DNA from: an uncultured Candidatus Bathyarchaeia archaeon
GTDB taxonomy: Archaea; Thermoproteota; Bathyarchaeia; Bathyarchaeales; Bathyarchaeaceae
Length of the DNA stretch: 64,000 bases
Reading direction: 5' to 3'
NCBI GenBank assembly: GCA_964556565.1
Contig: CAZKWF010000001.1
Location: 33,035-97,034, forward strand
The notes under the pieces were generated by a model, which worked only from the letters and a program-made list of their open reading frames with translations, made no database searches and was not told where the DNA came from. Every line of letters starts with the position of its first letter. Position 1 is the stretch's first letter. Below, piece after piece: positions 45,017 to 59,524 of the stretch. A program made the translations under genes and the position numbers.

Positions 45017-45757
45017 CTAGGTTCTCTGGAATATCTGCGATAAATCTTCAAAGATTCTTTCATAACGTTTTACTTTTGTGCTTTCCCATCCTTTCTTGAA
45101 ATCCTCTCTGAGAATGTAAACACCATCCAACTCATACTCAGCGATTATTCTGTTTCTGCTTTTCCCGTCAAACGACCCTTTTTTATTCTTACTTATGATG
45201 AAGTCGTCGTCATTATCCGTAGTCGCTAAAAAGACACGGATGTTTTTTGTAACGTCCGATGATACTAGTTTCAACTTCCAATAACATGCTTGTGCTATCC
45301 GCTCTCGCAAGCTTGTCTTACAAGATATTATTGCTATTATATCGGATTTCCAAGGCTCTAAATTCGCAAATTTAACAATAGCTAGATCAGTATCTGGAAG
45401 TAGCAAGTATTCTCCATACTTCACAGCAAGTTTTCTGAGGATAATATCATTCTTTTTTATCTCGTTTTCTTGCAGAACTTCAAAATCCCGAAAGCTCTGG
45501 TCTTGGCTTTTAAGCTTAAGCAGGTACCCTTTGGTGATGGAGTAAATAACTTTTTGAAACTTATTTCCTATGTAACCATGCCAAGATTGTTCTAGGTCTT
45601 TGTCAGGATGAATCTGCCTCAAAACTTCGATGTACTCGTCTTTCAGTTTCTGAATCTCGTCCCATGCTGTCTCAGGAGGCAACTCTCCGGTTTTGACTTG
45701 ACTTATTAAGTTGTCTATCTTTTTTCTTGGGTCTGCTTTCATTTCTTTCCTCTCCAA
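45017..45757 (-). CDS. Type II restriction endonuclease-like PD-(D/E)xK protein
   Basis: 246 aa. LLLPDTDLAIV ... IIAIISCKTSLRERIAQ is a PD...SxK variant with the K-T-S-x-R-E-R tail common in type II REases. Lies 27 nt downstream of the methyltransferase gene. Confidence 0.65.
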   Translation of the reverse strand: MERKEMKADPRKKIDNLISQVKTGELPPETAWDEIQKLKDEYIEVLRQIHPDKDLEQSWHGYIGNKFQKVIYSITKGYLLKLKSQDQSFRDFEVLQENEIKKNDIILRKLAVKYGEYLLLPDTDLAIVKFANLEPWKSDIIAIISCKTSLRERIAQACYWKLKLVSSDVTKNIRVFLATTDNDDDFIISKNKKGSFDGKSRNRIIAEYELDGVYILREDFKKGWESTKVKRYERIFEDLSQIFQRT

Positions 45758-47271: not shown

Positions 47272-48312
47272 ATGAGTTCAAAATTAGGCTTCTCAGAGTG
47301 GCCTTTCCGTACAATCCCAGACGAGGAATTCGTCAAGATATGGTGCGGTCGTAAAGAACTCTACGAAAGATTAGATAGGATATTCAACGGTATTGTCCGA
47401 AGACCGATGTTCCAGATTCATTTGGTGTACGGAGATTTTGGAACAGGGAAAACACACAGTATCAAGCATATGATAACCAAGTACCGTGAAAAGGTTAAGC
47501 TCTTGACGTCAGAGTTAGAATACGATATCACAATTAGGACGTTCACACAGTTATATCAGGCTCTGGTGAGTCGGTTAGACTTCAAAACAATTATAAAGTG
47601 GCCTAATCCCCCAGAAAAGAATTTCTGGCATGATTTTAGGTCTTTTGTTGGAGCAATCAAATCAAAGGACGAAGAAGAAAAAACAATAGCCACGAGATGG
47701 TTTACAGGTGAAGAAAAAAGCAAGAAAGCTCTAAGCAGAATCGGTATCAGAAGCCCTGTAGACAGCGTTGACACAACTATACGTGCATTTTCGCAACTCA
47801 CCAAACTGGCTGGGAGAAACAGATCTGCAGTTGTGTTGTTTATAGACGAGTTCCAACATATTGGCAAGCTCAACAGGAATTGGAAGGAGAGCATCCTGAA
47901 TGGATTAACCAAACTGGTGAACTCAAGCCCAAAGCATTTTTGTCTAATAATCTCGTTCAGACTTAGAATGCCGATGAAAATCCTTTCAATTATCCCGGAG
48001 AGCATGAAAACTAGATTCTCAGGGGATCCATTCATAGAGGTTACAAACTTTTCCAGAGATGAAGCGGAAGAATTCATGAAATGCCTTTTTAGGAAATTTC
48101 GCACTCGTAAATCTGAAGATCCATATCTTCCCTTCACACCCGAAGCTTTTGAAGCAATATTTGCGTTTCTAAAGAAGAGGAATGTAGAGTACAATCCCAG
48201 ATCTTTAATGAAGGTATTCGGATATGTAAGTGAGCGCTTTGAGGATTCCTCCCAAAACCCACCAATTTCTGAAGATTTCACAAAGGTATCATTGTGGTCT
48301 TATCAGGCATAA
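47272..48312 (+). CDS. ORC/Cdc6-like P-loop ATPase (paralog of 52274-53437)
   Basis: 346 aa. CGRKELYERL..., Walker A VYGDFGTGKTHS and Walker B VVLFIDEFQH. Its stop lies 1 nt from the convergent 48314-49351 stop. Confidence 0.7.
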   Translation: MSSKLGFSEWPFRTIPDEEFVKIWCGRKELYERLDRIFNGIVRRPMFQIHLVYGDFGTGKTHSIKHMITKYREKVKLLTSELEYDITIRTFTQLYQALVSRLDFKTIIKWPNPPEKNFWHDFRSFVGAIKSKDEEEKTIATRWFTGEEKSKKALSRIGIRSPVDSVDTTIRAFSQLTKLAGRNRSAVVLFIDEFQHIGKLNRNWKESILNGLTKLVNSSPKHFCLIISFRLRMPMKILSIIPESMKTRFSGDPFIEVTNFSRDEAEEFMKCLFRKFRTRKSEDPYLPFTPEAFEAIFAFLKKRNVEYNPRSLMKVFGYVSERFEDSSQNPPISEDFTKVSLWSYQA

Positions 48313-48313
48313 G

Positions 48314-49351
48314 TCATTCCGGTAAATTGTGTGGATACGTGTATAAACCATCGATTATGGGTGAAAACGCTTCTTTGTCGAAGACAAGATTTGTCGAAGT
48401 AGTATGAACCTCAATCCGACCTCTTAGCCTAGAAAAAATTTCTGGGCCTTCGGGGACTTCTGAAAGATCTCTCCAAATAGGATTCTTCGTTGGAACTTCC
48501 TTTTCAACTGCTGCTATTGATTCCACGAATTTCGGAGCATGACTTGTTATGCAGGAAGTTTCAACTATCCGAGAATTGTAAAGAATTAACACGTTTTGTA
48601 GAAATCGTTTCTGAACTGAGTTATCTTTCGAGAACATGAGGACGGGATCACCACGATAGAGAGGTTGGTTTATGTAGGCGTCTAACATGCCACTAATGAA
48701 GTTTTTCAGTTGTTTTGAATTCAGCTGCATACACACTCTTTCAAGCCGAGCAGCACATATTATTCTATGAAGTTCTGCCAACGCATTTCCCTTGAGTATA
48801 ATCCACAAATGTCCAAGCTTTCCTTTTTTTATTTTCACCACAATCTTCCTGTTTATACTATCTGCTAAACTCGTGATGCAATGTTCGACGAATTTTACAT
48901 ATTTAGGATCGGTCGCATTACGGACCAGCGAGACAATACATTTGTTGTTACTACTTACAATATCGGTAGCCAACCCGCTTCCATACACCGCATCGGATTG
49001 CCAATCCATGATTTCTCCTTTCACTCCTGGTACGAACTCAGGGGATTTAGGGGGATTGTAAAATTCAATAGCGCTGACCGAACATAGATCCTTTGTCTTG
49101 AAAGGCCTCTCTGAAAAAACAACAGTTTCAGGTACCAGAACACTATCTGTAGTTTGTGTGATCAGCCTAGTGCCACAGGATTTCTCTTCATTGCGTAATC
49201 CGACTTTCCGGTATTTTGTGTGCTTACCTATTCCTTCGACACCTAAGACCTTCGCATCTCTTGGAAGTTGGTTCAGAGAAATGACTCCACATCTGGTGAA
49301 AACAAAGCTATCCTTCGAAACTACTACGCCATAGCTCATTTCATATCCCAA
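48314..49351 (-). CDS. Free-standing intein-like protein (degenerate Hint + LAGLIDADG domains)
   Basis: 345 aa. Block-A-like VVSKDSFVFTRCGVISLNQL, LAGLIDADG-like YGSGLATDI and FISGMLDAYI, and terminal IEVHTTSTNLVF...IDGLYTYPHN followed by only 3 residues. The nucleophile and the TxxH His are absent. Confidence 0.55.
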   Translation of the reverse strand: MGYEMSYGVVVSKDSFVFTRCGVISLNQLPRDAKVLGVEGIGKHTKYRKVGLRNEEKSCGTRLITQTTDSVLVPETVVFSERPFKTKDLCSVSAIEFYNPPKSPEFVPGVKGEIMDWQSDAVYGSGLATDIVSSNNKCIVSLVRNATDPKYVKFVEHCITSLADSINRKIVVKIKKGKLGHLWIILKGNALAELHRIICAARLERVCMQLNSKQLKNFISGMLDAYINQPLYRGDPVLMFSKDNSVQKRFLQNVLILYNSRIVETSCITSHAPKFVESIAAVEKEVPTKNPIWRDLSEVPEGPEIFSRLRGRIEVHTTSTNLVFDKEAFSPIIDGLYTYPHNLPE

Positions 49352-49776
49352 GGTATAAAGAAAGTTGGTGAATCTAGGGTACCCTGATAGTCCACTATAC
49401 CTTCTAAAAGAAGATGTGTAAACAAGGTCCTCACTATTAACGATGAATATCCAGTGAGTCGCGAAGCATCTGTGACAGACAACTTCTTTTTCTTGTACAG
49501 CATTTTCATTAACGGTGATAGAATGCTACTTAGATTGTTCTCCTTTGTCGCAAGCGTAAAAAAGGAGTAAGGTCTCTCTTTTTTGCTCAATGCAATATGC
49601 TCGTAGATTTTTCGTTCGATCACCAATTTCTTTATGATTTCATTTACTTCATTTCTTGATGTATCACTTGCTACATTTTGGATAATATGAATCAAATGTG
49701 GTTTGTTCACGATCAATCTTGATCCTATCTGCTCAAAAACGTGTTCCACGATTTTCTTGTAACTGTTGATTGTCAA
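49336..49776 (-). CDS. Small protein with two wHTH-like halves
   Basis: 146 aa. 16-nt overlap with the downstream Hint-like gene. Confidence 0.45.
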   Translation of the reverse strand: MTINSYKKIVEHVFEQIGSRLIVNKPHLIHIIQNVASDTSRNEVNEIIKKLVIERKIYEHIALSKKERPYSFFTLATKENNLSSILSPLMKMLYKKKKLSVTDASRLTGYSSLIVRTLFTHLLLEGIVDYQGTLDSPTFFIPWDMK

Positions 49777-49787
49777 AGTAGTTCAAC

Positions 49788-50831
49788 CTAAAGTTTGATT
49801 CTGAGAAACCTTTTTTCGCCGTATCTGTCTGGAAGTATCTGATACCTATGCCTATCGTTTGTTTGCGCCTCATTTATCATTTCCCTAGCTTCAGATTCCT
49901 TCAGTCTATAACCTTGTAAGCCTTTTTGAATCACCAGTATATTAATCAAAGTGTTTATGTCGCAAACATTGAAAGCTGGGTCACGCAATTTTTCGTACAG
50001 GTTCTCTACATGTTCAATCGTTTCTTGACCTGAAACTATCTTGGTTCCTGGGTATCCACAGTTTCTAAGAAGAGTGTGCAATAGATCCTCCTGCGCTCGT
50101 GAAACAACTGTCTTGTAATTTGGTAAGAATCTAATGATTTCACAGTATGGCCTTACAACGTTTTTCTCTAAGAAGGAAATTCTATTGTTGCTGGGTCCCT
50201 CTCTATTTACAAGGTTCAAGTCTTCCATGATGCCAAGCGAAGGCTTTATCTTTGGATATAACGCCTTGGCGGTTTTTCCTCGTCTAACCGCTTTTCTATA
50301 CAACTTTAGATATCTCCTTCGAATGTCTAGACTATGAACAGACTCGACAGCAATCTTGAGTGCGTGGACGTAGACGGAGAAAGCATGATCAACCAATTCG
50401 TTTTTTGGCAGCATTTTTCTCGCCTTATACCAGCGGTAATCGTCACGGATTTCCCCAAATCTCTCAAGGTGATCGTGAAGCGATTTCACCATAGCATAAT
50501 TCTCCAATAGAAAACATCTCAAAAAAAAGATCTTGAATTCAACGGGAAGCTCTATCGGAATTTCCTCTACTGGTGTGAAAAATTCCAGAGTTCTACCCCA
50601 TGGAGTCAATTTGTTGTTCCTGAAAATCACTTCCAGTTCTTTTGCTATCGTTATTGTGTATTGTATAGACCTTTTATTCTGTTTATATCCTTCTTCAATC
50701 CCATGGATTTTCCTGAAGGAACTCAATGCCTCTCCAAACTTTCGAGCAATCATCATATCAGAACTTGGCTCTCTTGTCTTGACGCATCCCTTGAGAAGCA
50801 GTGCAAAATAGACAATCTTGTCAACTTGCAT
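49788..50831 (-). CDS. Alpha-helical hypothetical protein of the island operon
   Basis: 347 aa with no recognisable motif. Gaps of 11 and 23 nt to the neighbouring genes. Confidence 0.5.
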   Translation of the reverse strand: MQVDKIVYFALLLKGCVKTREPSSDMMIARKFGEALSSFRKIHGIEEGYKQNKRSIQYTITIAKELEVIFRNNKLTPWGRTLEFFTPVEEIPIELPVEFKIFFLRCFLLENYAMVKSLHDHLERFGEIRDDYRWYKARKMLPKNELVDHAFSVYVHALKIAVESVHSLDIRRRYLKLYRKAVRRGKTAKALYPKIKPSLGIMEDLNLVNREGPSNNRISFLEKNVVRPYCEIIRFLPNYKTVVSRAQEDLLHTLLRNCGYPGTKIVSGQETIEHVENLYEKLRDPAFNVCDINTLINILVIQKGLQGYRLKESEAREMINEAQTNDRHRYQILPDRYGEKRFLRIKL

Positions 50832-50854
50832 ATGTGTATTAATAAGAAGAGGCT

Positions 50855-52267
50855 TCAGTACTCTTTTCCACCATGAACGCTTACACGGGGTCTTATTTTG
50901 ATTGTGAATAGTCTGTTGACCGTCTCAGAGGAGATTATGCAGTACCCAAGTTTTAGGTCTCTACCTACCTCTTTAAAGAGATTTCTTTGTATTTCTCTCG
51001 AACCTATCTTTGCTCTTTCGAAATCTGATGTATTTCTCATGTTATATGCAGTCAAGATGTCTTGATCTCTTGATAGGCTATGGATAATTCCGATGTCTAG
51101 ATTCGCCTGAATTGAGGCATCGAGAGCTGAAGGCGATTGTGTGGCGAAAGCAGCAGATAACCCTATGTTCCGACCCTCTTTAACATATTTTAAAAGAGGC
51201 CCTTTTGAAGGCGGACTTCTTGTGGCAGGTATGTAGTTATGTGCTTCATCCATCAGGATCCAACCTCTTGGCGTCCACTCTTTTTTTAGTAAGAGTTGAA
51301 GTTTCTTAATTTCCCCTTTGTAATCAGATGAAGATGACTTGGTTAATAATTCCAATCTCTTCTCACATTCGTCCGTTATACCTCGGGCTTGGAAGATTTT
51401 TCGAGTTAGGACACCAACCACAGTCGTTCTCAACTCTTGTTCTAGATCCCGTAGCAACAAAACTGAGATTTTTCCATCCTTGAATATTTCCCGCACAGGT
51501 ATAGAGAAAGAGCCAAATATTTTTGCCAATTCAAGAGACCGTACTCTTCTAAATGCCGCATCCAAAGTTTTTTGTTCATATCGGTTCTTGGTTGAAGATG
51601 ATTCAAGCTTCGAATAAATATCAGAAAATGAAATTTCATCTTGCTCTTGCAGTGAAGTAATTAGATCCATGAATAGCTGTCCAAGGGGATCGGCTATCGG
51701 ATCTAATCCAAACATAAAACACCAATCTGCAGGTTCAAGATCTTTTAGGCTCAGCGAAAACTCAGTGAACTCAGGCGGATAATAATCCCTCTTGTATCCG
51801 TATGGAAAATAGAAGTCCGCAGGGACTTTTTCCTCCTTAATTCCCCATCTTTCAAGTTCGTTAATTCTCTCTTTTCCCTCCATGCTGGCTAGGTATTGCA
51901 TGCCCCAAAATACGTTGAGGGAATCAAACACTATAACAGCTTGGTGATCCTTCATCTGATTTATCCACTGCTTGCTAACTAGGCCCTCTGCAAGCACACC
52001 TAATGTATAGCTCTTGCCACTACGTCTTTTTCCCATAACGTAAACTATGTGGGCTCTATCAGTGTCCATCCAGACATCACAAGAATTAGTATCATATTCA
52101 TTGGATTTGCCAAGATATATACAAGATGGCGAATCCTCAGATGAGGAGCCAATGATCATGCCAGTTTTGGATGACCATGGCTTTTGTGGCTTAAGTTTTG
52201 GCAGAAAGCGATACCATTGTTCAAAAAGGATTCGTCTGAATTCAGGAATGTTTTCTGGTTTATCCAT
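50855..52267 (-). CDS. HerA/FtsK-superfamily ATPase (DUF87-like)
   Basis: 470 aa. Walker A MGKRRSGKSYTLG and Walker B WILMDEAHNYIP, plus GRNIGLSAAFATQSPSALD and GIIHSLSRDQD, as in HerA-type ATPases. Confidence 0.75.
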   Translation of the reverse strand: MDKPENIPEFRRILFEQWYRFLPKLKPQKPWSSKTGMIIGSSSEDSPSCIYLGKSNEYDTNSCDVWMDTDRAHIVYVMGKRRSGKSYTLGVLAEGLVSKQWINQMKDHQAVIVFDSLNVFWGMQYLASMEGKERINELERWGIKEEKVPADFYFPYGYKRDYYPPEFTEFSLSLKDLEPADWCFMFGLDPIADPLGQLFMDLITSLQEQDEISFSDIYSKLESSSTKNRYEQKTLDAAFRRVRSLELAKIFGSFSIPVREIFKDGKISVLLLRDLEQELRTTVVGVLTRKIFQARGITDECEKRLELLTKSSSSDYKGEIKKLQLLLKKEWTPRGWILMDEAHNYIPATRSPPSKGPLLKYVKEGRNIGLSAAFATQSPSALDASIQANLDIGIIHSLSRDQDILTAYNMRNTSDFERAKIGSREIQRNLFKEVGRDLKLGYCIISSETVNRLFTIKIRPRVSVHGGKEY

Positions 52268-52273
52268 ATCGAT

Positions 52274-53437
52274 CTACTCAACAAAACGTGAGTAAACATA
52301 TGGGGATTTGTCTAAGGCTGCGTTTCCAACAGCATTTGATAAGGCGTCGATCAATCTTCTCGGAGTTAGCTGAGACTCTTCAGTTATGCCTGCCAAAATT
52401 TGTTCCAAAGCTTCTTCAGAAAATGGATAAGTCGAATCATCGACTTTTTCATTTGGTGGGCTTTTAGCTGTCTTTGCTTTAATGTTGCATTTTGGGTCTC
52501 TCACGTATTGTATAACATCCTTCATAAACCTCATGGCATCAGGTTGTTCTAGTGTTGGGATTTCAATCCTGTTTCTCGGCCCTATTCTACTTATCACAGG
52601 CTCTTCGACAACTGTGGTTTCTGTTTCCCACCCACCAGCCTCAGTCGAGATTGACCAAATTACTGAAATGTACTTATTCGATTTGTCTGCCAATCTTAGA
52701 AATCCAAGGTTTAGTGAATCAAGTGCGTCATTGCTCAGGTCTTCCCAGCGTTCACACTCGTCCAACAGAATAATGATTTTCTTTTTCTCATAGGTCTCAA
52801 ACAATTTACCTATTGTTTCTAGCATCTTCACTAACATCTGTGGGTCAGCTTCTTTCAAATGAGAAGATACGCCTAAGTTGCTCAAATCTGAACTTGAGCT
52901 TGTGCTTCCTATCAGCCAGCGCCACACTAGGTTCTCGTCGGCCAAACTAATGCTCAGAACGCTCGCAAGATCATAATTAACTTCCTCAAGTCTCTTGTGG
53001 ATTGCAGCTGCCAGTTCGTCTCGCTTCCATCCAATTTTTTGCTTTATGAAATCTTGTTGTAGCTTTTGGAATAGCGTCAATATTTTTGGCTTACCTATAT
53101 TTTTGAGGATGTGTGCATACAAATCAAGAAACCTTGCATTTCTCGGGAAATCAGGGGCAGAGACGTACACAATCTCCACACCATATGGCGTTTTAGAAAG
53201 AGCTTGCTTAAGAGCAGTCGTCACCGTGAACAGAGTATGTGTCTTTCCTGCCCCATATGTACCAGTGACAAATCGCTTAGGACATCTAGCGGTTACAAGA
53301 TCAACTCGGATCTTTCTGGTTATTGAATCTACGTCGACTCCACTTCGTGGAACGTAAAAACCTGAATCTTTATCAGCGTATATTTCGAAGTTGTTTCTGC
53401 CTTTTTTAAGAGAGTATAGTTCTTGCACTGTAGACAC
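52274..53437 (-). CDS. ORC/BrxC-like P-loop ATPase
   Basis: 387 aa. Walker A TGTYGAGKTHTL and Walker B KIIILLDECERW. Shares the post-P-loop pattern (..F..LY..) with the 47272-48312 product. Confidence 0.7.
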   Translation of the reverse strand: MSTVQELYSLKKGRNNFEIYADKDSGFYVPRSGVDVDSITRKIRVDLVTARCPKRFVTGTYGAGKTHTLFTVTTALKQALSKTPYGVEIVYVSAPDFPRNARFLDLYAHILKNIGKPKILTLFQKLQQDFIKQKIGWKRDELAAAIHKRLEEVNYDLASVLSISLADENLVWRWLIGSTSSSSDLSNLGVSSHLKEADPQMLVKMLETIGKLFETYEKKKIIILLDECERWEDLSNDALDSLNLGFLRLADKSNKYISVIWSISTEAGGWETETTVVEEPVISRIGPRNRIEIPTLEQPDAMRFMKDVIQYVRDPKCNIKAKTAKSPPNEKVDDSTYPFSEEALEQILAGITEESQLTPRRLIDALSNAVGNAALDKSPYVYSRFVE

Positions 53438-53449
53438 AAAACAACCCTT

Positions 53450-54193
53450 CTAGTTGGAAATCTTAAACCTTTTCCAAGTAATAAGACTTGCTAATCTTGC
53501 TTTGGCTTCTCTAAATAATCTATCATCGTATATACAAAGAGAAAGTTCAGGGTTTCTAGAGAAGGTGAGGTTTTCCGAACCCAATAACAGGACTCGATTT
53601 CTCCAAGAATCTATGCTTTGTTCAAGCAAGTAGACCTTGGCATGTACACTTCCATGTAGACTTATTTTTCTAATACCTTGATTCCAGAGCCATCTAAGAG
53701 AGTTCTCAATACTATTTCTTAGATTAGCAGTTGCCGTCTTTTCCGGAGGTCGAGTTATGATCTGAACTCTATGCACCTTCTCCAAACATCTCTTGAAACG
53801 AGATTGATGTTCCTTTCCTATCACAATCCAAGGTGAACAGATCCAAAAACTCTCCAATTTTGGCAATTTTTCCATAAAAGACATGATGAAGTTACAAGCA
53901 TCATTCACCAAACGAGGTTTGCGGCTTTGCCGATGAAAATTCATTAGCGCCTGTAGAGAGCGTTTTCCAAATAGATATCCAAGATGGTAGAACCATTCCT
54001 TACCCTTATCTGTGAGACATACCATATCCTCTTTCACATCAATGAGAAGGGTACCAGACATCTGCTCAATCTGGTCAAACGATAGATTATATGTCGAAAG
54101 CACGCCCGAGAAATACACTCTAGAAACTGGACCGCGTTGAAGAACTGAGCAGATATTTAAGAGAGCTTCAAGACTTGCTGGTTTTGAACTCAT
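53450..54193 (-). CDS. wHTH + single-HKD phospholipase-D-family nuclease
   Basis: 247 aa. FWICSPWI, then LHGSVHAKVYLLE...LLLGSENLT (HxK...GSxN). The N-terminal ~90 aa are wHTH-like. Confidence 0.75.
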   Translation of the reverse strand: MSSKPASLEALLNICSVLQRGPVSRVYFSGVLSTYNLSFDQIEQMSGTLLIDVKEDMVCLTDKGKEWFYHLGYLFGKRSLQALMNFHRQSRKPRLVNDACNFIMSFMEKLPKLESFWICSPWIVIGKEHQSRFKRCLEKVHRVQIITRPPEKTATANLRNSIENSLRWLWNQGIRKISLHGSVHAKVYLLEQSIDSWRNRVLLLGSENLTFSRNPELSLCIYDDRLFREAKARLASLITWKRFKISN

Positions 54194-57685: not shown

Positions 57686-59524
57686 TTAAGCCAAGTTGGC
57701 AATGTAGATATCGATGAGTTCTCGAATCTCTACCTGCGCTGTACAGTCCACGATCCAGTCGTTTCCGTCAGGTGACAAGCCGCAACCATCAACGTGCCGT
57801 CGTGTGTTCTCCAGCAGCTTCATCGCTTCATCAATATTGCCGTCAGCCACGGCTAGTTCGACATCGTTGAGTATGTTGATCATGGCATTCCTAAGACCTC
57901 GGCTACGACTTCGATCCTTGAAAGCACTATCTGGCAAAGCGTTTATGGCATTCTGAAGCCACTCCACGTCTTCCCCGTCTGGTATGCCGTCGTCGTCAGT
58001 ATCAGAGTCCAACGGGTCAGTTCCGTACTCAACCTCCAAACCATCAGTGAGACCATCGTCGTCAGTATCGGAGTCTAGGGGATCAGTGCCGTAGACGTCA
58101 ACCTCGTCACCATCCGTGAGTCCATCGTCGTCACTATCAGGGTCCAAGGGGTCAGTACCGTAAACATTAACCTCGTCACCGTCAGTTAAGCCGTCGTCGT
58201 CGCTGTCCGTGTCTAGTGGGTCTGTACCATAGACATTAACTTCGTCACCGTCTGTCAGTCCATCGTCGTCGCTATCAGAGTCATCCGGGTCTGTGCCCAT
58301 CGCGATCTCCGTTCCATCCATGAGACCGTCGTCGTCGCTGTCCAAGTCAATTGCGAATGTTAGATTTCCAAGCGGTGGGGTGTATGTTGCGTTGATTGCT
58401 CCGATTTCGGGTTCAAGGAGGGGAACTGGAAGGTTGCCCATACCTACGAGGGTTCCGACACCTGGGTCGAGGCCTAGGATGTTAGTTGCTGCAACTGCGT
58501 CTCCGATTGTATCATCTAGACCTATCTGCTGGTAGAGGGGGCCTAGGCTGCCGGAGAATATGTTGATAGTTCGATCACCAACTATGGGGTCCAAGAAGCC
58601 CTTCATGTCGAGGTTCAGGTCTATGTCTGCAGATGTATTCAGCCAGTGGAGAACGGGTGTTAATAGTGCATTGACGGTATCAGGTTCATCTGGGAGCTGA
58701 ACGGTAACATCTAGAGTCTCACCGGCAGTTCCCCACTCGAGGATGCTTGGAAACCCTGGAAACCCCAATATCGGACCTGGATCTGTGATGTTAGCTCCAG
58801 TGGCATCGATGAAAGCCACCGCGCCACCGGCACCGCCTCCTATAGGTGTATCAGGAAAGTCATCTAGAGGCACAGGCGAAAGCGTAAGGGCGCTTGTTAA
58901 ACTCGCATCAAGTATGTGAAGGGTGAAGAGAGTCAAACCGATTGTACTACTACTCATAGGGACAACGACAGACGGTTCTCCGTTGAGAGGTGCTGTGAAG
59001 TTTGCTGATCCTGTGGCCAGATCCATGGGTACTGGTACGTTGTCGATAAGTTCAAGTTCTACGAGAAAGGGAATGATAGCGGCACCGAAGGGAATTATTA
59101 GCTCAGTCCAGGCTAGCGCGGTGACATTGAAAGAGACGGTGATCACTGCTGATGCATCAAGGCTGATCTCTGGGCCAGAATCATCGGTGGGTGTGTAGGT
59201 TATCTGTAGTGGCATGGGTTGTCCGGGCAGAATATCCGCAGTGTCATAGGTGAGAGTTATGTCAACTCCCATGTCAACCATGACATTAGCCGTTCCATTG
59301 ATGTCAAATTCGTAATTGATTAGTTCCTCACCAAAAGGTCCTAGAAGCGCATCGTCTATGTTTTCGTCAAACGTGAAAGTAGCGTTGAATCCAAGTCGCA
59401 GATGCTCCGTAATGGTGACCTCGGTTTGGGCATGTACAGATGGGACGAGTGCAGACGGAAACAACACCAAGGAAGCGAACATCAGGATTATCAGGCTCAA
59501 TGTGCCTACGTGGTTTCTTCTCAT
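57686..59524 (-). CDS. Secreted protein with thrombospondin-type-3-like Ca-binding repeats
   Basis: 612 aa. Signal/TM segment at the N-terminus, with about 6 tandem units TDPLDxDSDDDGLTDGDEVNVYG. Confidence 0.75.
   Translation of the reverse strand: MRRNHVGTLSLIILMFASLVLFPSALVPSVHAQTEVTITEHLRLGFNATFTFDENIDDALLGPFGEELINYEFDINGTANVMVDMGVDITLTYDTADILPGQPMPLQITYTPTDDSGPEISLDASAVITVSFNVTALAWTELIIPFGAAIIPFLVELELIDNVPVPMDLATGSANFTAPLNGEPSVVVPMSSSTIGLTLFTLHILDASLTSALTLSPVPLDDFPDTPIGGGAGGAVAFIDATGANITDPGPILGFPGFPSILEWGTAGETLDVTVQLPDEPDTVNALLTPVLHWLNTSADIDLNLDMKGFLDPIVGDRTINIFSGSLGPLYQQIGLDDTIGDAVAATNILGLDPGVGTLVGMGNLPVPLLEPEIGAINATYTPPLGNLTFAIDLDSDDDGLMDGTEIAMGTDPDDSDSDDDGLTDGDEVNVYGTDPLDTDSDDDGLTDGDEVNVYGTDPLDPDSDDDGLTDGDEVDVYGTDPLDSDTDDDGLTDGLEVEYGTDPLDSDTDDDGIPDGEDVEWLQNAINALPDSAFKDRSRSRGLRNAMINILNDVELAVADGNIDEAMKLLENTRRHVDGCGLSPDGNDWIVDCTAQVEIRELIDIYIANLA
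57965..58348. repeat. About 69-bp tandem coding repeats (TSP3-like units)
   Basis: Recurrent ccgtcgtcgtc...gggtc(a/t)gt(a/g)cc blocks on the plus strand. Confidence 0.8.

Follow-up and report, generated by a model that had tools for sequence, protein, structure and literature searches.

A modification-linked HerA/ORC/PLD operon of Bathyarchaeia and bacteria and its predicted role in defence

Gene content of the locus and the core shared across genomes

We analyzed a gene cluster at positions 47272-54193 of a 64,000-nt stretch of DNA from an uncultured Candidatus Bathyarchaeia archaeon (contig CAZKWF010000001.1, positions 33,035 to 97,034). The whole stretch is called the window, and coordinates without a locus prefix are window positions. 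The cluster encodes a predicted phospholipase D (PLD)-family nuclease, two ORC-like ATPases, a HerA-type ATPase and putative DNA-binding proteins, and had been described from its letters as a candidate undescribed seven-gene conflict system (the original prediction). Sequence comparison indicates that five of these genes form the core of a rare but widely spread, unnamed operon, nearly always accompanied by a modification gene. A check of the open reading frames (ORFs) showed that the seven genes are real and intact, with the coordinates and strands first reported. Together with the adjacent restriction-modification (R-M) pair, the features are as follows:

53450-54193, minus strand: predicted winged helix-turn-helix (wHTH)-PLD nuclease gene, 247 aa
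52274-53437, minus strand: ATPase B gene, 387 aa
50855-52267, minus strand: HerA-type ATPase gene, 470 aa
49788-50831, minus strand: gene of a fast-evolving ~350-aa family, 347 aa
49336-49776, minus strand: accessory gene, 146 aa
48314-49351, minus strand: intein-like gene as first called, 345 aa
48314-49339, minus strand: the same intein-like gene with a corrected start at Met5, 341 aa
47272-48312, plus strand: ATPase A gene, 346 aa
45785-47038, minus strand: DCD-methyltransferase gene (N6_N4_Mtase 4e-25, Dev_Cell_Death 9e-20)
45017-45757, minus strand: BsaWI-family type II restriction endonuclease gene (RE_BsaWI 5e-26)

The intergenic gaps of 12, 6, 23 and 11 nt, and the single nucleotide between the stops of 48314-49351 (minus) and 47272-48312 (plus), agreed with the earlier description. 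The 16-nt overlap reported between the 146-aa and 345-aa genes needed correction. The intein-like gene most likely begins at its fifth codon, leaving an overlap of 4 nt with the upstream gene, because a database copy (P0176) is 341 aa long and the family consensus begins there.

We then compared the cluster with about 40 loci from other genomes (numbered with the prefix L), comprising 30 GTDB loci, all from metagenome-assembled genomes (MAGs), and metagenomic contigs. The gene order was found in many genomes: ATPase A, PLD, ATPase B, HerA and the ~350-aa gene followed each other co-directionally in about 25 of the 30 GTDB loci, belonging to more than 10 phyla, and also in metagenomic contigs. 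This supports the idea of a conserved, co-transcribed cluster of nuclease, NTPase and DNA-binding genes. The core was present in Bathyarchaeia, Aenigmarchaeota, Dehalococcoidia and other Chloroflexi, Planctomycetes, Desulfobacterales and Binatia, as well as in Gammaproteobacteria, Xanthobacteraceae, Actinomycetota and Vicinamibacterales. ATPase B lay directly upstream of HerA in every locus that retained the core, and the ~350-aa gene always began a few nucleotides from the HerA stop. The closest GTDB loci of the window HerA were bathyarchaeial, with only ~42% HerA identity.

Because the ~350-aa gene follows HerA elsewhere, and a profile built from the ~350-aa proteins of 25 distant loci matched the window 347-aa protein (1.9e-24), the core is taken to consist of five genes. 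Thus, the conserved unit is not the set of seven genes proposed originally but this core together with a modification gene, and the 146-aa and 345-aa genes belong to one archaeal clade. ATPase A had been regarded as a paralog converging on the operon. It does converge here, but it is in fact the displaced first gene of the core: its orthologue stood first and co-directional in about 25 bacterial and archaeal loci, and it is inverted and displaced in the clade of the window.

Decayed and interrupted copies were also present. In a Verrucomicrobiae MAG (L034:7083-11556), ATPase B and HerA were pseudogenised into many fragments, a Chloroflexia MAG (L024:476-5515) had broken ATPase B and methyltransferase genes, and a Transposase_mut insertion sequence lay between ATPase A and PLD of an otherwise complete system (L005:6456-7698), a pattern typical of dispensable defence genes. 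Two distant variants (L030:12662-16573 and L031:8853-12719; HerA 29-30% identical) kept only ATPase B and HerA. In L030, the next genes encode a DndB-like protein and a protein of 904 aa that gave weak RNA-polymerase Rpb2 domain matches.

Predicted enzymes and DNA-binding subunits

Catalytic residues were invariant in all four enzymes, namely PLD, ATPase A, ATPase B and HerA. First, the PLD protein scored 29.4 bits with Pfam PLDc_2 (cut-off 27) over residues 114-236. Its HxK...GSxN (H184, K186, G205, S206, N208) and CSPW motifs were invariant in 25 orthologues, and the nuclease site is therefore under selection. Weaker matches were obtained with DrmC (7e-4, PADLOC) and BfiI (E 0.15). The PLD half of the architecture assigned to it earlier, a wHTH joined to a single-HKD PLD domain, was thus recovered above cut-off; its N-terminal ~95 aa were variable and gave a weak match to a LysR-type wHTH (E 0.14), and this domain is probably a wHTH. 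The single-HKD nuclease is predicted to be the effector of the operon.

Second, both ORC/BrxC-like ATPases exceeded the Pfam BrxC_BrxD cut-off of 22.2 bits (43.8 for A and 23.2 for B), in agreement with the original prediction. ATPase A (BrxC_BrxD, 2e-11) also matched AAA_16 and ATPase_2, and ATPase B matched AAA_22 and KAP; both had weak ORC1/Cdc6 (including TIGR02928 orc1/cdc6) and TnsC matches, and the best PDB sequence match of ATPase B was human Cdc6 (E 0.001). Walker A (G59-T66) and Walker B (D226/E227) of ATPase B were invariant in 28 orthologues. In ATPase A orthologues, Walker A and D192 of Walker B were invariant, and E193 was present in at least 90%. The two proteins are paralogous, as supposed, though distant (21% identity, E 7e-7), and they represent two distinct orthologous families of ORC/Cdc6-BrxD-like AAA+ ATPases. 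A Pfam search found no nuclease-like match in either of them, and their 346 and 387 aa leave little room for an insert.

Third, the HerA/DUF87 assignment was confirmed by Pfam (DUF87, 3.5e-8). Hundreds of full-length, ~40% identical homologues were found. The Walker A sequence GKRRSGKS and the Walker B DE were invariant. The best PADLOC match was mad8 (7e-16), with several HerA models besides. A HerA profile matched the defence HerA structures 9c1m, 8xau and 8wet/TdpA (1e-11 to 4e-3), and with solved HerA chains the match covered the C-terminal ATPase motifs only. This 470-aa member of the HerA/FtsK superfamily is predicted to be a DNA translocase.

The fifth core protein appeared to evolve rapidly, the window 347-aa protein being only 13-21% identical to distant members in pairwise comparisons. 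It had no relative by sequence in Pfam, NCBIfam, PADLOC, PHROG or PDB. Its AlphaFold2 model (pLDDT 90) contained three helix-helix-hairpin units, for which the Foldseek matches were all partial and non-significant: the recognition domains of FokI (E 0.07) and Nt.BspD6I, and an ORC winged helix, the latter with a probability of 0.96 over 86 columns. The protein is a predicted target-recognition subunit, largely helical, and the model suggests three wHTH-like units. Among 1.84 billion proteins, the family had 272 representatives at E<=1e-3, and the 150 listed (99-405 aa) included no fusion to a larger protein.

Besides the core, the archaeal clade has two proteins of its own. The 146-aa protein was confined to this clade (L002 and L037-L041 besides the window). 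It had been called a double wHTH, for which the sole match was a weak one to HTH_Mga (E 0.033), the two units being an alignment pattern; it probably does consist of two wHTH units. For the 345-aa protein, the suggested combination of Hint and LAGLIDADG agreed with the fold: its AlphaFold2 model (pLDDT 82) matched the TliVMA intein (7qss, 2e-9), PI-SceI (1jva, 1e-6) and I-DmoI (3e-4) in Foldseek. Its family comprised 27 proteins of 39-100% identity, and there was one weak match in a Bathyarchaeota locus. The protein is encoded as a free-standing ORF, with no insertion in a host protein. The family has no conserved N-terminal nucleophile (Cys1/Ser1), TQxT (TxxT) replaces TxxH in block B, and the C-terminal HN of the window copy is not conserved. 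In the second LAGLIDADG motif (AGMLDAYI), the catalytic Asp is replaced by Tyr, as seen in the family consensus and on inspection of the sequence. By these features the protein is catalytically degenerate, with Hint lobes around a LAGLIDADG domain, and it is probably a DNA-binding relic or accessory. The HO endonuclease is a free-standing gene, unlike the spliced intein PI-SceI. Both share with the intein-like protein a Hint fold interrupted by LAGLIDADG, and HO resembles it in being free-standing as well, whereas the window protein sits in a defence-like operon and has lost its splicing residues together with one or more of the catalytic Asp residues of LAGLIDADG.

Modification genes and genomic context

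Nearly every complete bacterial locus contained one modification gene, either a methyltransferase or a fusion of GNAT and ABC-ATPase domains. In profile searches, 19 intact bacterial loci had a methyltransferase of one orthologous N6/N4 family (~445-470 aa; E 1e-86 to 1e-206), and decayed fragments of it remained in L024. The gene followed the ~350-aa gene, in either orientation, or lay immediately upstream of ATPase A. In five loci, its place was taken by a GNAT+ABC-ATPase fusion of 616-636 aa, the domains of which were assigned by Pfam in L003 and L023 and by BLAST clustering, in which all five group together, in the other three:

L003:12513-14363, GNAT+ABC fusion
L019:12396-14306, GNAT+ABC fusion
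L023:6596-8488, GNAT+ABC fusion
L029:12423-14285, GNAT+ABC fusion
L035:10252-12126, GNAT+ABC fusion

This fusion may serve as a different self-marking enzyme that does not methylate. A sixth gene was not identified on the short contigs L006 and L009 or at the archaeal locus L007, and L012 ended in an N6_Mtase fragment.

The archaeal clade (HerA 69-89% identical) was represented by seven independent contexts: the window (L036), L002, L037, L038, L039, L040 and L041. All seven had the order PLD, ATPase B, HerA, 347-aa, 146-aa and 345-aa genes, followed by the inverted ATPase A. A DCD-methyltransferase gene was at most one gene away from this block in all of them, and the flanking genes were never the same. 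Three arrangements occurred: the gene lay downstream of the block and co-directional with it in the window, L002 and L040, downstream but inverted in L039 and L041, and upstream of the PLD gene in L037 and L038. The BsaWI-family endonuclease gene accompanied it in six of the seven contexts, being absent from L038, and no counterpart was seen in the bacterial loci. In the window, the two genes are on the same strand with a 27-nt gap and have the gene composition of a predicted type II R-M system. Against the bacterial system profile, the window methyltransferase scored 31.7 bits through motif I only (intact orthologues, 287-681 bits), and it is therefore a non-orthologous replacement. The original prediction that the cluster abuts a type II R-M pair is correct as to adjacency, but the linkage in all seven archaeal contexts makes the methyltransferase more than a mere neighbour. 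From its sequence and linkage, the DCD-methyltransferase is predicted to be a self-marking component. Its DCD (PUA-like) domain occupies residues 12-99, and all seven archaeal relatives have the same fusion; a modified-base reader attached to a methylase could favour maintenance methylation. In L002, a 71%-identical relative, a 461-aa protein without a Pfam match (L002:6575-7960) lies directly upstream of PLD and has no counterpart in the window.

These data bear on the possibility that the five- to seven-gene operon is a modification-independent defence, for example an abortive infection system that senses replication or packaging intermediates of the invader, and that the R-M pair is a separate co-migrant. 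Such an arrangement would be consistent with the window pair being a complete type II module by itself, with its methyltransferase not being orthologous to that of the bacterial systems, and with the varying position and orientation of the pair relative to the operon. On the other hand, the linkage persists in seven of seven archaeal contexts despite rearrangement and differing flanks, L038 keeps the methyltransferase without the endonuclease, and in almost every complete bacterial locus the operon comes with a dedicated methyltransferase or a GNAT-ABC gene but with no endonuclease. We consider this explanation unlikely.

With regard to genomic context, the cluster flanks look chromosomal and include genes for a family-B DNA polymerase, a RadB-like protein, two DUF72 proteins and an amidohydrolase. 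Several loci had neighbours of defence type, including TaqI R-M, a YjiV/MZB helicase, AbiEi, an SLFN-like helicase and PIN/MazE. A PADLOC scan of 131 neighbour ORFs returned nothing informative beyond methyltransferases, whose models dominated. A PHROGs search gave generic terminase/HerA motif matches only.

Archaeal viruses and plasmids commonly encode ORC-like and HerA-like ATPases (PMC4158269), and the cluster might come from a decayed integrated plasmid, virus or other selfish element, as a module for its maintenance, replication or partition. The ORC-like initiators, the HerA pump, the homing-endonuclease relic and the PLD protein, as a nickase, would then work for that element and not for the host. 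It is in line with this idea that the block changes genomic context, contains an intein/homing-endonuclease-derived gene and is slightly AT-rich. The AT-richness first claimed for the cluster is real but mild (40.3% GC versus 42.5% in the window), and the lowest-GC 6.9-kb stretches start at 44.5-44.9 kb, in a dip that takes in the R-M pair. By contrast, the window contains no integrase, replication-initiator, capsid or conjugation genes beside the block and no tRNA genes, and a repeat search found no long direct repeats flanking the cluster. A tblastn search with the HerA protein gave a single distant match among 72,556 plasmids and no match among 50,697 phage records; the cluster is thus essentially absent from the plasmid and phage collections. 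Moreover, the same core occurs in the chromosomes of many phyla with unrelated flanks, and the intein-like gene is catalytically degenerate and limited to one clade. An origin of this kind seems quite improbable. The single plasmid match (L042; Haloplanus sp. HW8-1 plasmid NZ_CP098519.1, 110820-124228; HerA 26.6% identity) was in a block encoding a 1363-aa 'BREX ATP-binding' protein, a hypothetical protein, the HerA-like protein, a GNAT protein, a PD-(D/E)XK nuclease and a helicase, and this locus resembles the predicted BREX-Related Capture (BRC) system discussed below.

The pairing of HerA with a nuclease also recalls archaeal HerA-NurA, and a housekeeping DNA-repair module, working as an analogous end-resection machine, was considered. 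The NCBIfam helicase_HerA model did match the HerA-type ATPase at 1e-6, though far below its cut-off. Yet the family is patchy and rare, as the 272 representatives of the ~350-aa family illustrate, decayed copies exist, the recognition subunit evolves fast and a methyltransferase is linked; in L041, a canonical Rad50-Mre11-HerA-NurA operon lies right beside the system. We regard a repair function as very improbable.

Comparison with known systems and interpretation

None of the systems in PADLOC 2.0, NCBIfam 2026 or Pfam fitted the cluster, as the original prediction had supposed, and a literature search found no named system with its composition. BREX was rejected as PglZ was missing and PglX was matched through a generic methylase motif only (1.8e-9, among 66 methyltransferase models); BrxD models of BREX gave E values of 3e-4 to 2e-3 on window proteins. 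For DISARM, there was no DrmA helicase or DrmB (DUF1998), and the DrmC match of the PLD protein reached 15.9 bits against an NCBIfam cut-off of 133. No SIR2 or DUF4297 domain was present in the nine proteins, which sets aside SIR2-HerA and DUF4297-HerA. With DndFGH and SspFGH, DndF was missing, DndH matched over the HerA motif region only (7e-5) and DndG gave 0.025 on ATPase A. Shango (SngB, 3e-6 on ATPase A only) and Azaca (ZacB, 3e-3) lacked their signature genes. The NCBIfam model DS41_1_antiphage gave E 0.019 on ATPase B, and the DefensePredictor paper provides no tie of DS-41 to this architecture. MADS, raised by the mad8 match, was also excluded: its gene content is different, and none of the window proteins had a match below E 1 with mad6 or mad7.

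Several of these systems are nevertheless similar in part. SIR2-HerA, DUF4297-HerA and TdpAB share the combination of a HerA-family hexameric ATPase and an effector, but are two-gene systems with SIR2, DUF4297 or TdpB effectors and no ORC-like ATPases. MADS has been validated experimentally; its Mad6 (kinase), Mad7 (DndG-like) and Mad8 (HerA) are mandatory, and methylation is thought to be used for self/non-self discrimination (Maestri et al., bioRxiv 10.1101/2023.03.30.534895). Like the window system, it joins a methyltransferase and HerA (Mad8) to a nuclease-type subunit, alongside a DndG-like wHTH protein, whereas its eight genes over ~22 kb, kinase, type-I-like methylase with an S subunit, DUF4276 and OLD/Toprim ATPase are its own.

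Closer still are two classes predicted in silico. 'HerA/FtsK capture systems' with Orc/Cdc6 ATPases (Rakesh, Aravind and Krishnan, NAR 2024, PMC10853773) combine a HerA/FtsK ATPase beside one or more Orc/Cdc6-family ATPases with an endonuclease effector and a fast-evolving protein; the multi-wHTH protein was described as rapidly evolving and likened to DndG/SspB/FokI, and the neighbourhoods as mobile and patchy. The window operon likewise has a HerA/FtsK ATPase gene and adjacent Orc/Cdc6-family ATPases (two genes here), but its effector is of the PLD/HKD type instead of an active PD-(D/E)xK restriction endonuclease. The Orc protein of capture systems carries, in addition, an inactive restriction endonuclease domain that separates its AAA+ core from its C-terminal wHTH. 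In turn, the wHTH-PLD effector, the two small (346/387 aa) BrxD-like ATPases and the integral methyltransferase or GNAT-ABC gene distinguish the window system, and the intein-derived and 146-aa accessories and the attached type II R-M pair its archaeal form. The BRC system (NAR 2026, PMC12839542) is built on similar lines, with HerA/FtsK, an ORC/Cdc6 ATPase of the BrxC type and a tripartite wHTH protein, to which a GNAT modification enzyme may be added; the window locus differs in having no PglZ, STAND NTPase or TGT, in its PLD nuclease, and in its short BrxD-like ATPases in place of the four-domain DUF6079. In the text and available supplement of both papers (PMC10853773 and PMC12839542), a PLD/HKD form of capture systems is not mentioned. 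Thus, the term 'undescribed' was only partly appropriate: the general combination has been predicted as HerA/FtsK capture, and it is the PLD-effector, methylase-linked form that was not found in those parts of the two sources.

Taken together, it is reasonably probable, as far as sequence can indicate, that the HerA/ORC/PLD operon belongs to the HerA/FtsK capture type and provides modification-linked, restriction-like immunity. The conserved order, the intact catalytic motifs, the near-constant modification gene, the DCD-methyltransferase linkage in archaea, the defence-type neighbours of several loci, the decayed copies and the mad8 match support a defence function. In this mechanism, the methyltransferase, in the window clade the DCD-fused N6/N4 enzyme, would mark host DNA, and the DCD-methyltransferase would also protect against its BsaWI-like partner. 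Selection of target DNA would fall to the fast-evolving multi-wHTH protein and the PLD wHTH, so that unmarked or otherwise recognised invader DNA is bound. Like ORC/Cdc6 and BrxC/D, the two AAA+ ATPases might then serve, while bound to DNA, as ATP-dependent switches or loaders and recruit the HerA ring, which would pump the foreign DNA to a PLD dimer that cuts it. The archaeal clade would have gained two DNA-binding proteins, the 146-aa protein and an inactivated intein/homing-endonuclease fold, with inversion of ATPase A. By analogy, this would be the same logic as that proposed in silico for HerA/FtsK capture (PMC10853773) and BRC (PMC12839542), in parallel to the validated MADS.

Some observations weigh against such a role. 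The loci L002, L008 and L010 have housekeeping neighbours. The dependence of cutting on missing methylation is purely our inference, and the wHTH assignment of the ~350-aa protein relies on an AlphaFold2 model with non-significant Foldseek matches (E 0.07). In addition, the window methyltransferase, being non-orthologous to the bacterial one and having its own endonuclease, could belong to an independent, co-travelling R-M module.

A more specific proposal, which we offer tentatively, is that of an unnamed, phylogenetically broad six-gene, methylation-gated 'capture and cut' system, with a GNAT+ABC sister form possibly using a non-methyl mark and an archaeal form with a recruited, inactivated intein DNA-binding subunit. 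The architecture is not categorically new, but it is clean, testable, broadly distributed and unnamed, and the GNAT-ABC alternative and the domesticated intein fold are unusual. If it is a working immune system, it would be a compact, well-delimited addition to the so far predicted HerA/ORC 'capture' class, whose bacterial six-gene versions (~7.5 kb) are small enough for direct testing in E. coli. It would also offer a handle on how an ORC/BrxD ATPase, HerA and a nuclease cooperate, a question shared with BREX, DndFGH and MADS. In that case, the alternation between methyltransferase and GNAT+ABC hints at a possible unexplored DNA (or protein) modification for self-marking, and the degenerate intein fold would be a rare example of a homing element that a defence system has taken over as a structural or DNA-binding component.

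Finally, some other features of the window were recorded. No Rfam RNAs were found in it, and promoter and terminator scans with bacterial models were at background level only. The palindrome ATGCATGCAT (at most one mismatch) had 17 sites versus 2.3 expected in the window, spanning 27069-61620, and the sites of this type include 44566, 54285, 57259, 57521, 60274 and 60340. Because so many sites are scattered throughout the window, ATGCATGCAT-family motifs do not mark the borders of the cluster, as had been proposed. Several of them fall between the checked ORFs, and ATGCATGCAT may be a genome-wide regulatory or promoter-associated motif. At 57686-59524, the window encodes a 612-aa protein with bacterial TSP3 repeats, whose gene coincides with a local GC peak of 52.6% at 58-59 kb.

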